Shown here piece by piece: positions 9,801 through 63,300 of a DNA stretch of 64,000 nucleotides. Position 1 is the stretch's first letter; the number at the start of each line of letters is the position of its first letter. The translations under genes were made by a program, and so were the position numbers. The notes under the pieces were generated by a model. The model did no database searches, was not told the origin of the DNA, and was given only the letters and a program-made list of their open reading frames with translations. The stretch comes from Eledone cirrhosa (Eukaryota): positions 82,894,001 to 82,958,000 of the forward strand of contig OZ024743.1 in assembly GCA_964016885.1 (NCBI GenBank). The letters are read 5' to 3'.

Positions 9801-12756
9801 TAAAGAGTAAATACATAGTATACAAGCATTGACAAAGCCAAAACAGAAGAATATATGTGGGGATACCATAAGTTGGGAGGAGTTTAAAGAGTAAAGTAAA
9901 AGGAGTAAAATAAAAATAAACATAAAAATAAGAATAAAAATAAAAATAAAAATAAAAATGAAAAATAAAAATAAAAAATAAGAAATGTTATCACTCACAG
10001 TTGGGCAGGGTTCCGTTAACATACAGCTACATACAAGTATATGCATAAGCATGAGCACCCGCATGCACCTACACACAAGCACCCGTATGCAACACATACA
10101 GTATACACTAATACAAATAACATATCATAGACGGATGGGCACAAGTTAAGAGATAGAGATAGATAAAAAATAGATAAGAGGTAGATAAAAATAGATAAAA
10201 AAATAGATAAAAATAGATAAAAAAATAGATAAGAAATAGATAAAAAATAGATAAAAAATAGATAAAAGATAAAAAATAAAATAAAATAAAATAAAATAAA
10301 ATAATATAAAGTAAAGTAAAATATACACCAGAAGATAAATAAAACAATACACCAAAAAAAAAAATGGAGTAAAATATACACCATAAAGGAAGGTGTGGGT
10401 AAAGATAAGACTGGCAAATGCATAAGCTATCAAGCTATGTTCAACAAGTGATATACGTACAACATATAAAATACACAAAAATATATATAAAAGAGACGTA
10501 TATATAAGGATATATATAAAAGAGACGTATATATAAGGATATATATAAAAGAGACGTATATATAAGGATATATATATATATATATATACACATATCAGTC
10601 CAAGTAATGCATATTTATAAAGATGTAACTGGGGGTAAAAAGATGTAATAAGGGTAATCAAGATGGTAATTATTAGGGCATGTAATAATAATATTATTAT
10701 AGAAATCCCAAGGTGACACTAGTGTTGACTCATGGTGATATATGGAATATATCAGGAGCACACGAACGCCTTAGGTGTTGCAGTTAGCCGCAGTTCAACA
10801 ATAGAGTGTTCAAATGAGATTTTTTATGAACAGATGCTAAGTCCGCACTAGATTGAGTGGACCATTACAATGCAATGGAAACATCCCAGGTTGGACAGTC
10901 CCAAAAGTTCACACTCCAAAGTTCAATCCACAGGTGTGCATTCATAGAGTTGAGCGGTTGGGCAATCCGAAAAAGTTCACACTCCAAAGTTCAATACACA
11001 GATGTGCATTCATAGAGTTGAGCACTCAGGCAAGAATTAATTGGTTAACAAGGTGTATCCATATCACAAGCAGGAGCATATGCTGGGAAGGTTGCAGGCA
11101 AATTCATATACAGCAGCACGAACATCAAGAGGCAAATAACTGAGGCGCATATTAGTGAGCAGAAGCAGGCAAGTGCAGGTGGTAAAACACAGTCAGGTGA
11201 AGCAGGTTATTATGCATACCATTTAATATAAGAAAACTCAACAACAGTGCATAACAAATAGCTTCCAAAGCCGATAACCACAAAATCACAACATTGAGCA
11301 ACAATCCGGCATCACAAGAATGTACGCAACATTAGGGTTAGTCCAGAGACAGTATATGTATACTTATACATACACACAAACACACAGACATGTATATACA
11401 GAGACAGTATACGTACACATATATACAGAAACAGTATATATATATATATATATATACACATACACGTATATACACATAAATATATACATACACACACACA
11501 CACCGCACCGGACACCCAAATCTACGCGGATATATTACACAAGATATCTTACCCAGCTAACAAAAGTCAAAAACCCATAACAGTTGCTCTCACTGGTCGC
11601 AGATAATGTAGTTTCACAGTAAATTAGCCAGAGTAATCACGATTAATATTCAAAATACAACCTTATGAGGAGATGCGTATTCCCACGTGTAGTCACCAGA
11701 TTCAAGTATAAACAAACCGTTAATAAATACGGAAGGCTATCGGGGCCAAAACGTTATTTTTGGGAGAATAACACAGAGCGTCAATCTATGGTGTGCTCCT
11801 GATATATTCCATATATCACCATGAGTCAACACTAGTGTCACCTTGGGATTTCTATAATAATATTATTATTACATGCCCTAATAATTACCATCTTGATTAC
11901 CCTTATTACATCTTTTTACCCCCAGTTACATCTTTATAAATATGCATTACTTGGACTGATATGTGTATATATATATATATATATCCTTATATATACGTCT
12001 CTTTTATATATATCCTTATATATACGTCTCTTTTATATATATTTTTTATATATATTTTTGTATATATATTTTTGTGTATTTTATATGTTGTACGTATATC
12101 ACTTGTTGAACATAGCTTGATAGCTTATGCATTTGCCAGTCTTATCTTTACCCACACCTTCCTTTATGGTGTATATTTTACTCCATTTTTTTTTTGGTGT
12201 ATTGTTTTATTTATCTTCTGGTGTATATTTTACTTTACTTTATATTATTTTATTTTATTTTATTTTATTTTATTTTTTATATTTTATTCTATTTTTTATC
12301 TATTTCTTATCTATTTTTTATCTATTTTTAAATCTATTTTTTATCTATTTTTTATCTATTTTTTATCTATCTCTATCTCTTAACTTGTGCCCATCCGTCT
12401 ATGATATGTTATTTGTATTAGTGTATACTGTATGTGTTGCATACGGGTGCTTGTGTGTAGGTGCATGCGGGTGCTCATGCTTATGCATATACTTGTATGT
12501 AGCTGTATGTTAACGGAACCCTGCCCAACTGTGAGTGATAACATTTCTTATTTTTTATTTTTATTCTTCATTTTTATTTTTATTTTTATTTTTATTCTTA
12601 TTTTTATTCTTATTTTTATGTTTATTTTTATTTTACTCTTTTCTTATTTTACTCCTTTTACTTTACTCTTTAAACTCCTCCCAACTTATGGTATCCCCAC
12701 ATATATTCTTCTGTTTTGGCTTTGTCAATGCTTGTATACTATGTATTTACTCTTTA

Positions 12757-33171: not shown

Positions 33172-34068
33172 TGCTGTTTGTGATGGGGAAGTAGTGAGGG
33201 AGTACCATTTTTAAACAATTATCTGTATTAATTCGCTGCTATTTCACAATGGGATACATTTCTCACAAGAAGCTTCTTACATGATTGTCAAGAATTGAAC
33301 ATTTCAAAAAATTAAAAAGGAATTAAATTTTTGTGATTATAATTTTATATTCATTTTTCAATTATTAATTATTTAATTTGTTATTAAAATTGAAGATCAC
33401 TTCCGAATCAAAGAAGGAAAAAAATTGATTAGAAATCGATAATTTAAATCTAATGTTTTGTATGAATAAAATCTAAAAATAAAATAAATATTAATAAAAA
33501 TAAAAACTATTAAAAGATTAAAATAAAATAGAATAAAATAAAATAAGAATTAATTAAAAATAGAACAAATAATAAAAAGGTCAAATTAAATTAAATTGAA
33601 CGGTAAAATAAAATTAAAAATGAAAATAAAAGTGAAATCATAATTACAATTATGAAAAAATAAATTAAAATATAAATAACGAATAAAAATAGAAATAAAT
33701 ATATATAAATATAAACAACACATGGTGGTGGTGGTGATGGTGTAGTGGTGGTGGTAGTGGTGGTGATAATGGTGTTGGTGGTGGTGTAGTGGTGGCGGTG
33801 GTGGTGGTGGTGGTGATAATGGTGGTGGTGGTGTAGTGGTAATGGTGGTGATGGTGGTGGTGGTTGTGGTAGTGGTGGTGTTGGTAGTGGTGGTGGTAGT
33901 AATGGTGGTGGTGGTGGTGATGGTGGTGGTGATAGTGTTTGTGGTGGTGAGGTTTGTTGTGGTGATTGTTTTAACAAAAGCGAACATTCAATTTTTCATT
34001 CGTTCAAGAATGAAAACAACAATTGTTAAGGTCTCTTAACTCATGTTGGTGGTGTAGGGACCCTATCT

Positions 34069-34636
34069 TGACATCTGGTGTATTTTGATATCTGGTATAT
34101 CGGTACACCTGGTGTATCTCGATATCTGGAATATCTTGTCATATGATATGTCGGGACATCTGGTGCATCTTGACATCTGGTATATCTTGACATGTGTTGT
34201 ATCTTGACATCTGGTATATCTTTTCATATGATATATCGGGACATCTGGTTTATCTTGGCATCTGGTGTATCTTTACATCTGGAATATAAGGACATCTGGA
34301 ATATCTTGACATCTGGTATATCTGGACATCTGGTGTATCTTGACATCTGGTGTATCCTGACATCTAGTTTATCTTGAAATCTGGTATATCTTGACATATA
34401 TCTGGACATCTGGTTTATCTTGACATCTGATATATCTGGACATCTGGTGTATCTTGACATCTGGTGTATTCTGACATCTAGTTTATCTTGAAATCTGGTA
34501 TATCTTGACATATATCTGGACATCTGGTTTATCTTGACATCTGATATATCTTAACATCTGGTGTATCTTGACATCTGGTGAATCTTAACATCTGGTTTAT
34601 CTTTACATCTGATGTATCTTGACATGTGATATATCT
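34069..34636. repeat. 17-bp minisatellite (gacatctggtgtatctt) with higher-order ~117-bp duplication
   Basis: More than 30 degenerate units; 34320-34436 is repeated at 34437-34553. Confidence 0.9.
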
Positions 34637-34773
34637 TAAAATACAGCAAATTTCTTCTGGAGAGTATGATATGAGGGAAAGTGTGAGAAACTGAGTGAAA
34701 GACAGAGAAAGAAGGAGTGAGTGAGTGAACGAGAGCTAGAGAGAGGGAGTGAGGGTGAAGAAAGGGAGAGAAT

Positions 34774-54917: not shown

Positions 54918-55095
<178 letters not shown>

Positions 55096-55315
55096 TATAT
55101 AAATATTATATATATATATATATATATATCGTTTCTCAATCTGTTTAGCAAGATTCTTTATCTGAAAACGTGTGTTGAAACCGATATTGTTATGCTTTGG
55201 GAGGGTCATGTTGCCAATAAGAAACACACGCACCAGTTGTTTTCACTCCAATTTATTATAAATTAAATTTATAAATTTAAGAATTTATAAATTTCCGGGC
55301 GGTTGTTCATATATT

Positions 55316-55416
55316 GTCAAAGTTCTTTCGTCAAAGTTCTTTCGTCAAAGTTCTTTCGTCAAAGTTCTTTTGTCAAAGTTCTTTTGTCAAAGTTCTTTTG
55401 TGAAAGTTCTTTCGTC
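55316..55416 (-). repeat. 7x14-nt tandem array (gtcaaagttctttc)
   Basis: Units start at 55316, 55330, 55344, 55358, 55372, 55386 and 55400. The unit is the reverse complement of 58876-58889. Confidence 0.95.
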
Positions 55417-56668
55417 CCGAGTTTACACCTACACCATCAACACCGATGTAAGAAGATTACAACTTACCAAAAAGCAAGCAGATAGGCTAAAACGAACACT
55501 AATTCTAAACATAAAAAAGATTTACAGAGAATTAAGTCATCAAGAAAAACATAAGCGTAACTTAATACAAGAAATAACTAAGATCACCAAGAGAAAAATT
55601 GATATATATAAACCTTATATGTCTCGAAGAAAAGTACATTGTTCAGGAATGCGACAAACACTTTAACAAGAAATTAAGGTGGCTCAAACAGATGAAACTA
55701 AACCAAGAAACTTCAGAGAATAGAGATAAATATCGAGATAAGATTGATGGTATAAACATGGCCGACATCTCATTAACGGATGAATTCAACAACAACAACA
55801 CAAATATATACGGCAACACTACAGTCGACTCTGATGAATTATCGATATTACAGCTACCACCTAAATATGCCACATATAATAAGGTAAATATGATAAAATG
55901 CTTGTCAGAAATAGAAAAATCATTTACAAAATTACGTTGGAGCCTCAAAAACAAAAACAAAAACAAAAGTAACAACATACGCACACACATACAACACACA
56001 TCCCAACAACAACAGACACACAGACACAAACAACGATAACAACAACACAGAAGTAAGGGAAGGTAATGGAATTGAACGGAGAAGGGAGACTATCGATACT
56101 GACAGAGAAAATAACCAGGACGAGCACACAGACACACAAAATAGAATAGATAATAACAATGAGCCAGAGGAAAGAGACAGGAGTAATAATGAGAGACATA
56201 GAAACAACAATGAGGCTGTTGGTGGAAATAGAAATAGAAACAACACAACTAACAATAACAATAACAATAGTACACATAAAGCAGCAGCCTAGAATTCTAC
56301 TTTTTATAATCCTTCCGATATGTCCTTCGACCTACGGCGAGTCCACGCCACGACTTTAGCTTTTAACAAACTCACGCAATTGCCGTCGCAGGTCGATGAA
56401 CAAACAGAAGCACAATTTAGTATAGCTCGATCTAAACTTAGAAATATTATAGAACAGTATAGCAAGAAGCAAAATAGAATGGAGGCCCAGCAACTGGGAG
56501 AAAAATCTGCAAATGGCTTGCGTAAGCTCATGCAGCGCTCGCGTAATGGAAAGATTTCATGCTTTCCAACAGACAAGTCTGGCAGAATGTCGGTTGACAG
56601 TCTGCCAAACTACAGCCAGGCAATGCAACCCCACATCACTAACACAAGAGAAGTAACACCACAAGAGC

Positions 56669-58648
56669 ATGAGCATAGGGAGAAAACCCTCAATGCACAT
56701 AATGCAGCGCAATAAAAGGACTGCCAACAACTCCCGGGCCTGGAAAAATGACGTGCCAGCGTTGTATGGGCTTCGAAAAGACCATAAGACGAGCAGTGAC
56801 CCTGTCACAGGACCACCAGCACGGCCAGTCTGTGGAGCTAACATTGCTAGTAACTACAGACTTTCCTACTTCCTCTCCCTGATCATACGCCCCATCATTG
56901 AAATGTCCCCAGATATATGTGACAACACGGAGGACCTCCTCAGCAGAATCAGCGAAAATAACCGATCTAGGGACCTAACAGACTGTATAATAGGTAGTAT
57001 GGATGTTGTGTCCCTATATCCATCCATTGACGTGGATTTTGATGTGGAGAAATGCGTAGAAATGATCAGTGAGAGCAATGTTGAATTCCATGGGATTGAT
57101 ACCAGTGAGCTGGGACTCCTACATAAACTTACCTATAGTAATAATTATCTAGATACATATGACCTTAGCAACCTGTGCCCTACAAGACCAGCCAGAGGCA
57201 GACCACCTACCATTACCTCAATGGCCAAGAAAACCCACACAGAAAGATGGAACGGGTGGACCAGAGTCATACGGACCCCCGAAAACCACGATGAACTAAA
57301 GAAAATGATTGCACATGCGGTGGAGGCCAGTATAAAACTAACCCTTAAGGAACATATGTTCAAATTTAATGGAAAAACATATGCCCAAGAGGAGGGAGCA
57401 GCTATTGGTGTTAGCATTGCAGGTGACATAGCTAACCTATTCATGGTATGGTGGGACAATAAACTTAAACTTAAACTTAAAGAACAATTAGAAGACAGCA
57501 ACCTCTTAACCCTGATAATGTACTCCCGCTACGTTGATGATATAAACATCGTAGTAAAAACACCCCCACTAGAGAACATTCAGGAATTAGAGAAAAACAC
57601 CATGGAAAGCATCCAGCAAATAGCTAACTCCATCCACCAGAGTATTAGAGTTACTATATACCACCCAAGCAAACACCCCAACAATCGATCACCTGTACTA
57701 GACACAGAGCTCTGGTTAGAAACCATTAATAACAAAAAACAAATCCTCCATTCCCATGATGCCAAACCCATGACTTCCAAATATCTAATCCACCGAATCT
57801 GTTTCGGATCACACCAAAATCAACATACTGATTGCGAATTTGGTACGGGTGATGAGAAACGTGTCCGCATGTGCAACCCCAAAGAACTAGAGAGACACAT
57901 ACAACACTTCATCCAACGTATGCAGTTCTCTGGTTACAATCAGAGAGATAAAATCAGAGTATATAGAGGAGCCAGAACCAAATGGGAAAAAATGGTAAAT
58001 AATGATACAAATGGGACCTGCCTCTTGTATAGGAGCAAATTTTGGAATAGAATAGAAAGAACTAGGAATAAAGTTAATAGAATAAACTCATGGTATGATA
58101 GCAATAAATACCAGAGTGTAATCAATACAACCCCTAGAGGTGAATTAGCTTACAAATTTAGAAGGGCCCTAGATAAACATAAACGTAATATTAAGATAAT
58201 AGAAAGACCAGGTACCTCCATAAAAACACTTATTAGCAATACATACCCTTTTCAAAGACCTACCTGTATAGATAAGAAATGCATAATCTGTAAACTAAGC
58301 CCCCATATTAAGTGTAAAACTAGAAATGTAGTATATAGCATAAGATGTACTGAAGGACAATGTAGAGATAAGAATATAGTGTACATAGGTGTGACAGCTC
58401 GTAGTATAGGAGAACGGTTAAATGAACACTGGCGAAAGCTTCAAGATAAAAAAGAATCATCAATACTCCACCAATATGCTAAAATAGAACATAAGGGCAA
58501 ATTAGAGAACATAGAAATAAAAATAGAATCTACACACAGAAAAGACGCAATGTTTAGACAAATCACAGAGGCAATAAACATAAATGAACTCCAACCAAAA
58601 TTAAATAGAAAACATGAATGGAATAGCAACATCACAACTTACAATTAA
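56669..58648 (+). CDS. PLE reverse transcriptase + GIY-YIG endonuclease (C-terminal ORF of a frameshifted gene)
   Basis: LYGLRKDHK, RPVC, SMDVVSLYPSI, QEEGAAIG, RYVDDI; Cys cluster CIDKKCIIC; VVYSIRC...VYIGVTARSIGERLNEH. Confidence 0.93.
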   Translation: MSIGRKPSMHIMQRNKRTANNSRAWKNDVPALYGLRKDHKTSSDPVTGPPARPVCGANIASNYRLSYFLSLIIRPIIEMSPDICDNTEDLLSRISENNRSRDLTDCIIGSMDVVSLYPSIDVDFDVEKCVEMISESNVEFHGIDTSELGLLHKLTYSNNYLDTYDLSNLCPTRPARGRPPTITSMAKKTHTERWNGWTRVIRTPENHDELKKMIAHAVEASIKLTLKEHMFKFNGKTYAQEEGAAIGVSIAGDIANLFMVWWDNKLKLKLKEQLEDSNLLTLIMYSRYVDDINIVVKTPPLENIQELEKNTMESIQQIANSIHQSIRVTIYHPSKHPNNRSPVLDTELWLETINNKKQILHSHDAKPMTSKYLIHRICFGSHQNQHTDCEFGTGDEKRVRMCNPKELERHIQHFIQRMQFSGYNQRDKIRVYRGARTKWEKMVNNDTNGTCLLYRSKFWNRIERTRNKVNRINSWYDSNKYQSVINTTPRGELAYKFRRALDKHKRNIKIIERPGTSIKTLISNTYPFQRPTCIDKKCIICKLSPHIKCKTRNVVYSIRCTEGQCRDKNIVYIGVTARSIGERLNEHWRKLQDKKESSILHQYAKIEHKGKLENIEIKIESTHRKDAMFRQITEAININELQPKLNRKHEWNSNITTYN

Positions 58649-58846
58649 GGACAAAATGAAAACACACACACACATAGAACAAACAACCAACCTGTAACAT
58701 GTAAATAAACAAATAAATAAACAAATATAAACACACACAGACACCCGGATGTAACACATGCGCAAACTAAGCACACAGCACACACAAAAACAAGATGGCG
58801 TAGGACAGAACAAAGGAGAGGCACAAAACAAAGAAAAGAATCCCCA

Positions 58847-58889
58847 GTCACTGAAGAGGTCACAGAATGTGTGACGAAAGAACTTTGAC
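58847..58889 (+). ncRNA. Minimal type I hammerhead in the PLE 3' pLTR
   Basis: gtca-CTGAAGA-g-gtcaca-gaatg-tgtgac-GAAA-gaac-TT-tgac, at the position expected for a PLE HHR. Confidence 0.78.
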
Positions 58890-59059
58890 AATATATGAAC
58901 AACCGTCCGGTTATGGAACCGACCAACCAACCGGAAATTTATAAATTCTTAAATTTATAAATTAATTTATAATAAATTGGAGTGAAAGCAACTGGTGCGT
59001 GTGTTTCTTATTGGCAACATGACCCTCCCAAAGCATAACAATATATATATATATATATA

Positions 59060-59468
59060 AACGTTTGTATATCTATAATAAAGCCAAAACAATGCAGGTA
59101 TGAACATAGAATAAAGAATGCAAATGCAAAAGATATTGTTGACAATTAGTCTTTTACCTTAGATTTATTTAAATGTCCTTAATTTTCAAAATAATATCTC
59201 TTCTTCGGAGGGACGTAAAGTGGTTAAACCAGTGTTCTAAATAGCTTGCCAAGTCATGCTGACAGGAAATGGTATAGAGTATCTGTTCTATCTCTAATAT
59301 CAAAGAGTTAAGGTTAGGTGGATAAAGAGTATTTTTTTTTGTACATGCCTGTTTAAGTGTGTGGGAGAATGCGTGAAGGTGTAAGTATGTGTGTGTGTGT
59401 GAGTGTCAGAAGATATGTCTATACATAAGTGTGGGGGATAGATGTTATCTCGTGTTAGAACTGGTCTT

Positions 59469-59501
<33 letters not shown>

Positions 59502-60365
59502 ATAAGTGGAGGTGTAAGCGTGTGTGTGTGTGTGTGTATGTGTGTGTGTGTGTGCATGTGTGTAGGAGGGGTTGTAAATATGGGGCTAGATGCTCTATCA
59601 AGTTATAAATTGGGTGTTGAGTTCTAGTCTATTATTGATTGGTGGTTGTGTTTTGTCTATAATTAGTGCTTCCTTAATTCTAAGATTGCCGAGGTTTCTT
59701 TCCTTAGCTTCTATCCTAACTGTTATGGTTTTGTCGGTGTTTTTGCATTTAACTAGGTGTTTCTTAACTGAGGAAGCATTAGTATTGAGGTGTTCTTTTA
59801 TTCTTATGTGGAGTGGTCTGGTGGTGCTACCTACGTAGAAGTTGTTGCATTTGTCACACTCTAGTCTGTATACGATGTAAGCCTGGTGGCATAGGTCTGT
59901 GTCGTTGATGGGGCAGTTGGCTAGTCTGCAGCAGTTGTCATGTCTGGTGGAGTGTCATTTGGTTAGCTGTCCGCGTAGAGAAGGACCTGAGTGGGCCAGT
60001 TGGATATCTAGTCCCTCTCGTCTGATAGCTCTGCGGATGGCTGTTATTGTTTCTTCACTGAAGTGTGAGAGCTTCAGGAAGCAAGTGTTAGTGTCTCGGG
60101 TGTGGTGTCCTCTGTTCTTTCTGGCACGGTTTGTGGTGGATGTCGTGTATCCGTTCAGTTTGAGTACTTCCAGGAAATGTGTGGTGTGTGTGTCTCGGTC
60201 TCTAGCGTCGGTGCATTTGTTCCGGATACGTGCCAGTTCGTTCCTTATGTATCCGAACTTAACGCCGGCTGGGACGGCCGATCTGAAATGTACGAACAGG
60301 TCCCTGCTGGCGGCTTTTTTATAGAAGCAGGTGTGGATGTCTCCTTTATATTTCATGTGGATATC
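59060..60365 (-). mobile_element. 5'-truncated Penelope-like element (thumb + GIY-YIG + 3' UTR)
   Basis: ORF 59955-60356 (FYKKAASRDLFVHFRSA), then IVYRLECDKCNNFYVGSTTRPLHIRIKEH on the minus strand near 59600-59900. Degenerate HHR at 59175-59214 (gtccct-CCGAAGA-agag-atatta-tttt-GAAA-at-TA-aggac). Confidence 0.88.
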
Positions 60366-63300
60366 ATTTGATCACTTTGTTTTGGTGTTTTAATCGCGAA
60401 ATATTCTTTGAACGATATTTATTACTAATATTTATAGTTCTCTTTGACCGCTCTCTCTCTTTTTGAATTGCTATTTCTCACGCTGTCTCTGTCTCTCTCA
60501 TTCTTCCTTCCCCTCTCTCTCTCTCTAGGTCACACGAGCTCTCTCCCCCTCTCTCTCTCTAAATCGCACCTTGAATTTCTCACCCGACTTATCTATCTTC
60601 TCTCTCTAACCTTTCCCCCCACTCTTCCCGCTATCTCTCTCTCTCCTCTCTTCTGTCTCTCCCCTTTTCTTTTCTTCTATTTCTTTTTCTTTTTCTATCT
60701 CTCTAGATCGCACAAGCTCTCTCTCTCTTTTTCTCTAAATCGCTCCTTAAATTTCTCACTGGACTTATATCTCCCTCTGTCCCTCTCTAAACTCTACCCT
60801 ACACTTCCCACTATCTTTCTTTCTCCCCTCCACAGCGAAATGGACTGCATACAGGAAAAAGGTGAAATTAGGAGTCAGCGAAACTGGTCAAAGATGGAAC
60901 TAGCGGTTTTCATCAAGGGGTGGACCATGGCTGATGGGTCTCCACCAAGAAAAAAGATGGCGGAGAACCTGAAAAGCCATGGGTTTCTGAGGACTCTGGC
61001 ACAGATAGAGAGAAAGAGAAAAGAAATTGAGAAGGCGTATGTCCTCATAGCGCCACATATGGTGATGCTAAGCCGTGTCCTCAAGCAGGAGAAAACCGAA
61101 CAGAAGGGAGAGGAGAGGGAAAAAGAAAAGGAGGAGAGCACAAGCACGGACCTGAAAGAAAATGAGATACCCTCCGCCACAGTCAGGGAGGGCAGGCTGG
61201 GCAACCAACAAGCAAAAGGTGAAGGTGAAAACCGAAATCACTTTCCGAAGGAGAACCAAGCGCAGAGAGACCAGTGGACAACTGTTCAAAGGAAGAACAG
61301 AAAGCACGGAGACACTGGTAGCAAAAAAAACCCAAGTAATGTGCAAGTTTTTCAAGAACGGGACCTGCTGGCATGGAGAAACAGGGATGGGATGCAGATT
61401 CGCCCACCCCAGGTCTCAAACGAACTATGCCCATCCTACTCGCGCAACATGCCCGAGCCAAAGCCGAAATAAGCCGCTCCAGAAGTATGGTGATGTCGCG
61501 CGTGCCGCACCAACAAGGAGAAGGCACGTACATGCCGACGAGATACAGATGGCAGCAGCAGAGCAGAAAATCTTTTTAGTGCTGGCAGAGAAGATTGTGG
61601 GACAGCTGACCTGGCTGCATCGTTTCCAGAGCCAGGGTCACCCACACCAGCACTCGATACCACCACAGCTAAGGGACCAGAGTGGCCGCCGCTGACACCA
61701 GACCAGGTGTCATACCGACAGCCATTACTGGCACCCCAAAAGTCACACCAGTGCTGCTGCTGAATGTCAGAGGCCTGGTGAAACTCAGTAACATGAGTAA
61801 AATTTCCTACCTGGGAGACTTAGCCATAAGCAATCAAGCATTATGCATGGCACTAACCGAAACGCACCTGACAAGCAGTATAGCAGATGCAGAAATACAT
61901 ATACCAAAATATACTGTATTTCGTTCGGACAGGAAGGAGAGAACTCATGGTGGGGTTGCTCTGTATATCCGTGAAGAGGTCACACCAATTGTACTGTTGA
62001 CACATTCAAACTCAGTCTGTGACACACTGATAGTACATATGAAGCAACTACAGACAGTAATATGTGTCACATATCGGCCGCCGATGCCCCCAGTCATGAG
62101 TGTAAATTTGAGGATAGCCTAAGTAGGATAGAAGAGGTTTGGCCAGGGTCTCAACATTCTACTGCTGGGAGACTTCAACCTACCAAAGGTCAAATGGCCT
62201 GAGGCCCACCTCCTCCCTGGAATGACGTCAATAGAACAGAGACAGACGGAATCCCTGCTAGCCCTCACACACAGGCTGTTCATGGAGCAAGTAATACTCC
62301 TCCCAACAAGAGGCGAAAATGTCCTAGACCTCTGTTTTACAAACAACGAAGTGCTCATCCACAATGTAAAGGTGACACCAACAATTCTCTCGAATCATAA
62401 CTTAGTAGAGCTAATGATATGTGAGCCGAGAGAACCAACAGAGACAGAACCATAAAGAAGCTCCGGGACGTTATCCAGCCTTAACTTCTACAAGGCTAAC
62501 TGGAAAAAGATTAAGAGAGAAATCCAGAAGCAAACGTGGAGTGAAAACACCGCCACACAAGACACTAACACACAATTTCAACACTTCATGACAACGATAC
62601 ACACTATATGCAAAAAGTTTGTCCCGGAGAAAAAGGCAAACAGACACAAAAATCTTATTCCCAGAGATAGGAAAATCCTTATGAGACGAAGAACCAAGCT
62701 CTCAAACCAGTTGAATAGTCAACAAGAAAACAAAAACAAGAAGGAATCCTATTTGAAATGTGCACTTCTTGGCATCGAGATTGCACTCAAACTTTCCCAT
62801 AAAAATGAGAGGGCAAAGAAAAAGAACAGGGCCATAGAAAACATTAAAACAAACCCTAAGGCCTTCTTTAAATTTGCAAAAGAAACTGCCTCGGTACACT
62901 GCAAGATTGGGCCACTCTTCCATACAGACGGTTCATTAACCGAAAACCCCCAAGAGATATGTGAAATACTGAACGAACAGTACAAAAGTGTGTTCACATA
63001 TCCATTGAGGCACATGCAAATAACGAAGCCAGAGGAGTTCTTTGATGCCACAACACTACATGAAGAAATGGCGACCATCAACCACATAGACATAACGGAG
63101 GAGGATGTGGTGTACGCCATAGATGAAATTAGAACAGACTCAGCTGCTGGACCTGATGGATTCCCAGCAGTTCTCTTAAAAACATGTAAGCGGGCCTTAG
63201 CAACTCCACTGAAGATGCCCTTCAGAAGCTCCTTGGCTAGCGGTGTACTACCCAGGGAGCTGAAAGAAGGCACAATATGCCCTATCCATAAAGGAGGTAG

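Follow-up and report, generated by a model that had tools for sequence, protein, structure and literature searches.

A tandem array of 14-base units at the junction of two cDNAs of a Penelope-like element in Eledone cirrhosa is probably a scar of repeated re-priming

The window analyzed here is the whole stretch of 64,000 nucleotides of Eledone cirrhosa contig OZ024743.1 (GenBank assembly GCA_964016885.1, positions 82,894,001 to 82,958,000 of the forward strand), and the positions below are those of the window. A retroelement insertion in it consists, from left to right, of a (TA)n microsatellite, an inverted piece covering element positions +219 to -14 and stopping in the hammerhead motif, six extra units of a 14-base array, a microhomology, a forward body that starts at about +320 and extends to +159 of the following repeat, and an (AT)n microsatellite. 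Element positions are counted from the predicted ribozyme cut. The target microsatellite on the left flank was found with TRF at 55096 to 55129, and that on the right flank was read from the sequence at 59045 to 59059. The inverted 5' piece (55130 to 55333, minus strand), which would represent the second cDNA, was recognized as an inverted repeat with 58959 to 59044 and by BLAST against sibling copies; compared with these copies, it has undergone a deletion near 55295, where the two CCGG of a hairpin mark the limits. The array (55316 to 55416, plus strand) ends in five bases, TCGTC (55412 to 55416, plus strand, element about +320), which its last unit shares with the start of the body, because the family reads GCC-TCGTC-CCGAG at the body-start site, as found at 29 sibling loci. 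In four intact copies this microhomology lies at +320 to +328.

The forward body (55417 to 58648, plus strand), which would be the first cDNA, is a 5'-truncated and decayed single open reading frame, with reverse transcriptase (RT) and C-terminal GIY-YIG regions in the open stretch at 56657 to 58648. The 3' pLTR (58775 to 59044, plus strand) was delimited from the end distribution and the priming sites and runs from the common 5' end of the family, at about -81 to -110, to the first priming site at +159. A predicted minimal type-I hammerhead motif occupies 58847 to 58889 (plus strand) in this pLTR, and its sequence and fold place the predicted cut after 58885. The window copy differs from the sibling majority at 36 of 1,484 body positions.

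The domain matches identify the element as an endonuclease-bearing Penelope-like element (PLE) with an RT and, at the C-terminus, a GIY-YIG domain, in agreement with the sequence-only reading of this locus. The body matched the Pfam RVT_1 family with an E value of 5.5e-5 to 1.5e-4, under the curated cut-off, and a search of PDB with the RT part gave one weak RT match. The C-terminus of the body aligned pairwise to a Pfam-confirmed GIY-YIG domain (E 5e-9), and a Pfam search with that C-terminus itself gave no match. The Atlas (language-model) neighbours of the body protein were animal proteins with RVT_1, GIY-YIG or HTH_animal domains. The 5' part of the reading frame is broken in the window, and in intact siblings the frame begins within the pLTR and continues past the point at which the window's body starts. 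The family thus shows pLTRs in direct and inverted arrangement with an optional tail, and an open reading frame that starts in the pLTR, as endonuclease-bearing PLEs do (PLE structure and ribozymes are treated in the excerpted parts of PMC8557442 and PMC4209133).

Other repeats occur in the window. A second, different GIY-YIG element adjoins the insertion in the opposite orientation (59598 to 60371, minus strand; Pfam GIY-YIG, E 3e-7), and LINE-like open reading frame remnants at 60438 to 62122 include a 344-codon open stretch and a weak exo/endo/phosphatase match (E 0.03). TRF found a 17-base minisatellite of about 34 copies at 34064 to 34637. A+T-rich tandem repeat sets with 5-, 11-, 20- and 29-base units, at 10151 to 10670 and 11884 to 12378, recur as reverse complements about 1.5 kb apart, which suggests a long inverted repeat.

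We then analyzed where the cDNAs of the family end. In 80 loci taken in genome order, 100 of 102 pLTR 3' ends fell at one of two sites 60 bases apart, with 54 at +159/160 and 46 at +219/220, and nearly all were followed by (TA)n. The two ends in the window, 59044 and 55130, both lie in (TA)n at these sites (+159 and +219). Such ends agree with reverse transcription that is primed from both strands of the target and starts at two internal sites, as reported in vitro for the Anolis PLE in excerpts of PMC11167929. They also fit the twin-priming model for inversions, described for LINE-1, whose 5' junctions carry microhomology (PMC11702581, in part).

The 5' ends were also clustered. Twenty-seven of 100 sampled stretches ended 81 to 110 bases upstream of the predicted ribozyme cut (window 58775 to 58804); these stretches had mostly been picked for reading through to -22 and were hence left unused for ends near helix II. 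This 5' hot spot is the likely start of the RNA, and because it lies upstream of the cut, most cDNAs would have been copied from uncut RNA. At one locus (L126:640-714, minus strand) a hammerhead-ended cDNA is joined directly to a tRNA-Arg(ACG) found with ARAGORN and then to about 27 bases and (TA)n; the insertion may be chimeric or may lie next to a tRNA gene. In these pLTRs, skips forward from one short direct repeat to another (16 to 80 bases) are commoner than duplications, with examples at window 55290 to 55300, across the CCGG hairpin, and at L067, L068, L070, L198, L213 and L225.

The array has a period of 14 bases, 7.2 copies and 95% matches in TRF. Its unit is the reverse complement of the hammerhead segment at 58872 to 58889. 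Units 1 to 3 have C as the final base, units 4 to 6 share a T at the unit boundary, and unit 7, which alone shows C>G at the third base, is followed by GTC. The tandem array at the junction and the C>T variant common to units 4 to 6 had thus been read correctly from the letters, and so had the presence of seven units, with the refinement that unit 1 is the last part of the inverted pLTR piece and that six were added. The description of the array as stopping at the base of helix II did not hold, since the array extends into that helix, whose six-base 3' strand is represented by four bases in every unit (three in the last unit).

The exact pattern of two units gave five matches in the 3.0-Gb genome, all within the window array, and the reversed control gave none; the array did not arise by chance. 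It also appeared in independent short reads. A 91-base contig, found once in each of runs X2 and X3, spans 55341 to 55431, beginning inside unit 2 and continuing past unit 7 and its junction with the body; it shows one differing letter (55384) and no gap. Runs X2 and X3 are from one sample, which is probably not the assembled individual, because only 0.35 to 0.43 of the sampled words were present in them. The contigs do not fix how many identical units open the array on its left side, and no read or contig of the short-read runs crosses it whole. The RAD runs X5 to X7 had no coverage of the locus. X5 reads with two apparent T units mapped to an old fold-back copy that lacks the array (L143), and a 64-base X4 contig that resembled a two-unit locus with a jump to the upstream pLTR was absent from the assembly at two mismatches and was not counted. 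The sequence-only reading had proposed a check of the reads for an assembly artefact; with these contigs, the array is genuine. It is a by-product without function.

It was proposed that the ribozyme helix acted as a template boundary. The motif in the window has the features of the minimal hammerhead described for metazoan PLEs in the excerpted part of PMC4209133, namely predicted CUGANGA and GAAA cores, helices I and II and a very short helix III. Helix I would be formed by 58847-50 and 58886-89, the CUGAAGA core lies at 58851-57, helix II would be formed by 58859-64 and 58870-75, and GAAA lies at 58876-79. Folding gave helices I and II as expected, but the z score was only -1.36, and an Rfam scan of 55000 to 59200 at E 1 gave no match. 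As noted earlier from the letters, the template segment at 58872 to 58889 is a hammerhead segment flanked by TGAC on both sides, which is an A-B-A' layout. Such a layout is commonplace, because 305 bases of the window pLTR hold 43 direct repeats of at least 4 bases spaced 8 to 25 bases apart.

If the helix were a boundary, cDNAs should stop there. Exact matching, which gives a lower bound, found no fewer than 4,095 copies that continue across the segment as far as the loop of helix II. A pattern that catches departures from the element gave 172 matches; among the 100 matches listed, 70 were examined as loci and the remaining 30, judged from their letters, were single-base indels or further matches to a locus already listed. 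Inspection by eye gave 35 true junctions among the matches listed, spread over all 22 positions of the stretch, and 8 of the 35 fell within the helix II strand, about as many as even spacing predicts. Among these 35 there was no pile-up of cDNA ends at the predicted cut site. Scaled for the matches beyond those listed and for a capture chance of about 0.42, the estimate is about 150 junctions over 22 bases, or about 0.2% per base. Because of the many read-throughs and the lack of a junction excess at helix II, the ribozyme is not a template boundary.

The use of the 14-base register elsewhere in the genome was also analyzed. With two mismatches allowed there were 12 matches, of which six were in the window array and six at other loci. 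Three of these loci (L137, L139 and L142) are cDNA ends, L141 is ambiguous and lies at a fold-back, L140 has a 14-base duplication at the cDNA start and then reads on, and L138 is an old decayed copy. None of the seven loci of this register lies deep inside a young read-through copy, although thousands of such copies carry the full 4-base repeat. At L137 and L142 the second unit carries GTCACA, as expected if a cDNA had overrun helix II by six bases and then re-paired further back, with a single mismatch inside the pairing.

Variable-length arrays of the same 14-mer at independent 5' junctions, named in the sequence-only reading as support for an RT mechanism, were not seen, as the six other loci have at most two units each. 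The unit numbers in this register (7, 2, 2, 2, 2, 2) are overdispersed against a simple geometric model (p about 0.02). The seven-unit array is unique in the genome, and no locus with more than five units was found beyond it. A source element that already carried the array was considered and rejected, as there is no second copy in the genome.

We then analyzed reiterations in other registers, with unit counts made by eye (automatic counts were rough, with a deletion at L157, a fold-back at L271, another element at L272 and two arrays mixed at L263). Reiteration of a 12-mer at the 5' hot spot was seen at 14 loci, every one of them lying at a cDNA end, and the periods range from 15 to 32 bases with 2 to 5 units. 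Eleven of these loci have two units, L240 has three units of 20 bases, L247 has four perfect units of 15 bases and L244 has five in a patchwork. Immediately 3' of the ribozyme the search gave 25 matches, and the reversed control gave 9; among 20 loci fetched, 18 were element reiterations, 12 or 13 of those at cDNA ends, and L261 and L268 have three units each. An upstream register gave four loci, three of them at ends. In a 16-base register there were no matches, with a weak pattern whose first base is private to the window copy and whose microhomology is absent from one subfamily.

Within the hammerhead core, a search in a 12-base register yielded 14 matches; 13 are duplications with two units, and 11 of those 13 lie inside read-through cDNA. 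Twelve of the 13 cross over on the side favoured by a cDNA-strand primer, which is a weak sign of an RNA template, as the other strand could use the same side. The 12-base duplication at window 58852 to 58863, between the 5' strands of helices I and II, occurs at 13 loci (L144-L156) in different subfamilies.

By exact patterns, whose differing lengths make the comparison rough, the 14-base register has one locus, the 12-base register seven, the 11-base register about ten and the 17-base register six. Periods of 11, 12, 13, 14, 15 to 32 and 17 bases all occur. In the 80 loci taken without bias, 7 were flagged for reiteration, an order of magnitude only, as some are simple-repeat variation. Because neighbouring registers, mostly outside the ribozyme, give as many reiterations or more, stuttering is a family-wide feature of cDNA ends, with the register set by local microhomology, and the specificity claimed for the 14-mer was not borne out.

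Some duplications have another history. At L278:656-830 both inverted arms share a short duplication, with two units in one arm and three in the other, and at L274/L275 both arms of one insertion carry the same duplication. Such sharing by both arms means that some duplications were already in the template and can be inherited from a source element. At L042:1030-1230 a 58-base composite unit, made of most of the hammerhead and of open reading frame sequence, is duplicated at the inversion junction.

The junctions also bear on the time of amplification. Host (TA)n lies between the units at L238, L252 and L260, and a run of bases from the opposite cDNA lies between the units at L244; such interposed bases cannot arise by later slippage. 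Because of them and of the linkage of reiterations to junctions, the first slips would have occurred at the time of insertion, and the origin of the array is tied to insertion as had been proposed: reiterations are strongly junction-linked, and none of the seven loci of the 14-base register lies deep in a young read-through copy. At L244, moreover, a 26-base composite unit that is absent from the element stands in repeated form, which shows that re-copying from DNA takes place at junctions of this kind.

The T run of units 4 to 6 was analyzed in the same light. TG stands at the C>T site in 4 of 96 sibling stretches and at 1 of 38 CpG sites of the window body, so that three adjacent T units by independent CpG decay have a probability of 3e-4 to 2e-3 and such decay is an unlikely source. 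An opposite-end (minus-strand) primer that overshoots by two bases re-pairs at five of six positions to give a T unit, whereas a cDNA primer on RNA pairs at one terminal base. The T run therefore fits DNA-templated copying better than RNA-templated copying, and one CpG change with two later duplications would also give it. Realignment on a short direct repeat, part of the first account of this array, does explain the 14-base unit; processive RNA-templated addition of all the units is disfavoured by the T run and by the other loci of the register, with no more than two units. Across the family, arrays of 3 to 7 units stand at cDNA ends with strand marks in both directions. Sequence alone cannot name the polymerase, and slip-back of the RT on RNA is possible.

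These results suggested that the array is a scar of repeated cycles of priming, extension, release and re-priming on short microhomologies while two cDNA ends were joined, with at least part of the amplification on DNA, a reading to which we give a probability of about 0.68. Both target strands would have primed reverse transcription, and the second cDNA would have stalled or ended near helix II by chance. A 3' end would then have slipped several times, by 14 bases each time, on the GTCA/TGAC repeat until the two ends were sealed together. The RT may have made the first slip on RNA, and units 4 to 6 at least were more likely copied from DNA. Either the RT or a host polymerase such as Pol theta could have copied them from the opposite end, during second-strand or end-joining synthesis. 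Alternatively, units 4 to 6 may have arisen by later replication slippage after one CpG change. Four findings count against the re-priming scar: seven units are an outlier, the GTCACA mark at L137 and L142 fits RT on RNA, slips in the 12-base register lie mostly in read-through cDNA and so were in part not junction events, and duplications common to both arms (L278, L274/L275) can be inherited.

It is a doubtful but conceivable extension that the Penelope RT has a latent repeat-addition processivity. When stalled or at the RNA 5' end, and whatever the local structure, the enzyme would realign on 3- to 5-base repeats and add several units without release, and the 3- to 7-unit arrays (the window, L247, L240 and L268) would be genomic records of it.

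The PLE RT is the closest retroelement relative of telomerase. PLE RTs are not known to have RNase H, and its lack would leave the RNA available. The first account of the array was telomerase-like: on reaching the ribozyme helix, taken as a template boundary, the RT would have halted and then added six units processively on RNA. Six extra units do stand at one cDNA end, L137 and L142 independently show an overshoot of the cDNA strand into helix II followed by slip-back, the four perfect units of L247 and the three of L240 also stand at cDNA ends, T and C units are each an exact substring of the template, and an A-B-A' template beside a stem is what telomerase and DRT10 use (PMC12632851, in part). 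However, at least 4,095 read-throughs face an estimated 150 or so junctions even over 22 bases, the 14-base register is outnumbered in the rough comparison of exact loci given above, the T units would require a one-base realignment three times running, and the composite repeats of L244 show DNA templating. We therefore consider this account unlikely.

Also unlikely is an ordinary minisatellite, in which the junction was made with one unit that later grew by replication slippage on the 3- to 4-base direct repeat. A CpG-type change common to three adjacent units, the outlying number of seven, the interior two-unit duplications of the family and the age of the window copy, as judged from its 36 differences, would all suit such growth. 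The absence of deep interior duplications from young read-through copies, when junction copies have one, does not; nor does the unit count over 55341 to 55431, which is equal in the second sample, and patchwork junctions with host DNA between the units are impossible by later slippage.

Serial template jumping, in which an RT at the ribozyme-cleaved RNA end jumps repeatedly to the 3' end of cleaved RNA so that the last ten bases plus four make the unit, is very improbable: the unit boundary GTCA|AAG does coincide with the predicted cut and R2 proteins do jump templates (PMC11371274, in part), but cDNA ends do not pile up at the cut, every jump would have to halt when precisely four bases of the helix had been copied, similar arrays occur at registers without a cut site, and the purified Anolis PLE did not need ribozyme cleavage, with uncut RNA as its main substrate, according to excerpts of PMC11167929. 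The chance that an assembly artefact produced the array is practically nil, given the contigs of two runs and the distinct variants that mark individual units, even if the array was never spanned whole.

The re-priming scar was then compared with known systems. In Pol theta end joining, as described in the excerpted part of PMC12426944, short copies of the break flanks (mostly under about 30 bases) are primed by minimal pairing and patchworked at a microhomology junction, and iterative, patchwork insertions are under 25 bp. The junctions here appear analogous, with microhomology, short copies of flanking sequence and iterative patchwork. They differ in that the ends are retroelement cDNAs, for which RNA can serve as template as well and the element supplies an RT of its own, and seven regular units are longer than usual Pol theta insertions.

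In the I factor, in Alu/L1 tail expansion (PMC3415434, in part) and in eel UnaL2 (PMC1636434, in part), the RT likewise releases, re-anneals on the RNA and repeats a short segment, and these sources already compare RT slippage with telomerase. Their slips occur at initiation on pre-existing 3' repeats, whereas most slips in this element family occur at the cDNA 3' end, in single-copy sequence, on 1 to 5 bases of microhomology. The inverted 5' piece joined by microhomology resembles LINE-1 twin-primed inversions (PMC11702581) and the inverted pLTR/tail structures of PLEs, in which two internal priming sites give the tail and the target is A+T-rich (PMC3846280 and PMC11167929, each in part). Palindromes and microhomology are reported at PLE junctions in PMC3846280, microhomology, extra bases and duplications at R1/R2 5' junctions in part of PMC2718515, and snap-back synthesis in R2 insertions in PMC11371274. 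Reiterated units at PLE cDNA ends are not described in the available parts of PMC3846280 and PMC11167929, and no description of them was found in a literature search that covered material other than subscription papers and supplements.

Telomerase and DRT10, as excerpts of PMC12632851 describe them, also copy an A-B-A' template by a stem-loop into a tandem reverse complement of A-B. Those systems have a strict boundary and normally produce added repeats, whereas in this element family more than 95% of the cDNAs read through, with an arbitrary register and with arrays as an infrequent by-product. Neither a structural boundary that halts synthesis nor a single repeat register was found, given the read-throughs without an excess of ends at helix II and the range of periods.

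The array is best seen as a variant of known retrotransposon junction scars and as the longest case found of a family-wide pattern. How PLEs complete insertion is still unvalidated according to the excerpted part of PMC11167929, which also describes an active purified PLE protein, Poseidon of Anolis. A family with thousands of young copies is a large natural record of this step: its cDNAs start at two sites in (TA)n, favour one 5' end and often show iterative re-priming where they end. If a host polymerase re-primes on DNA, PLE 5' ends would be sealed as LINE 5' ends are, which is useful but expected. If the RT re-primes on RNA, the arrays would give evidence in vivo, from the sister clade of telomerase, for the elementary step by which telomerase adds its repeats.
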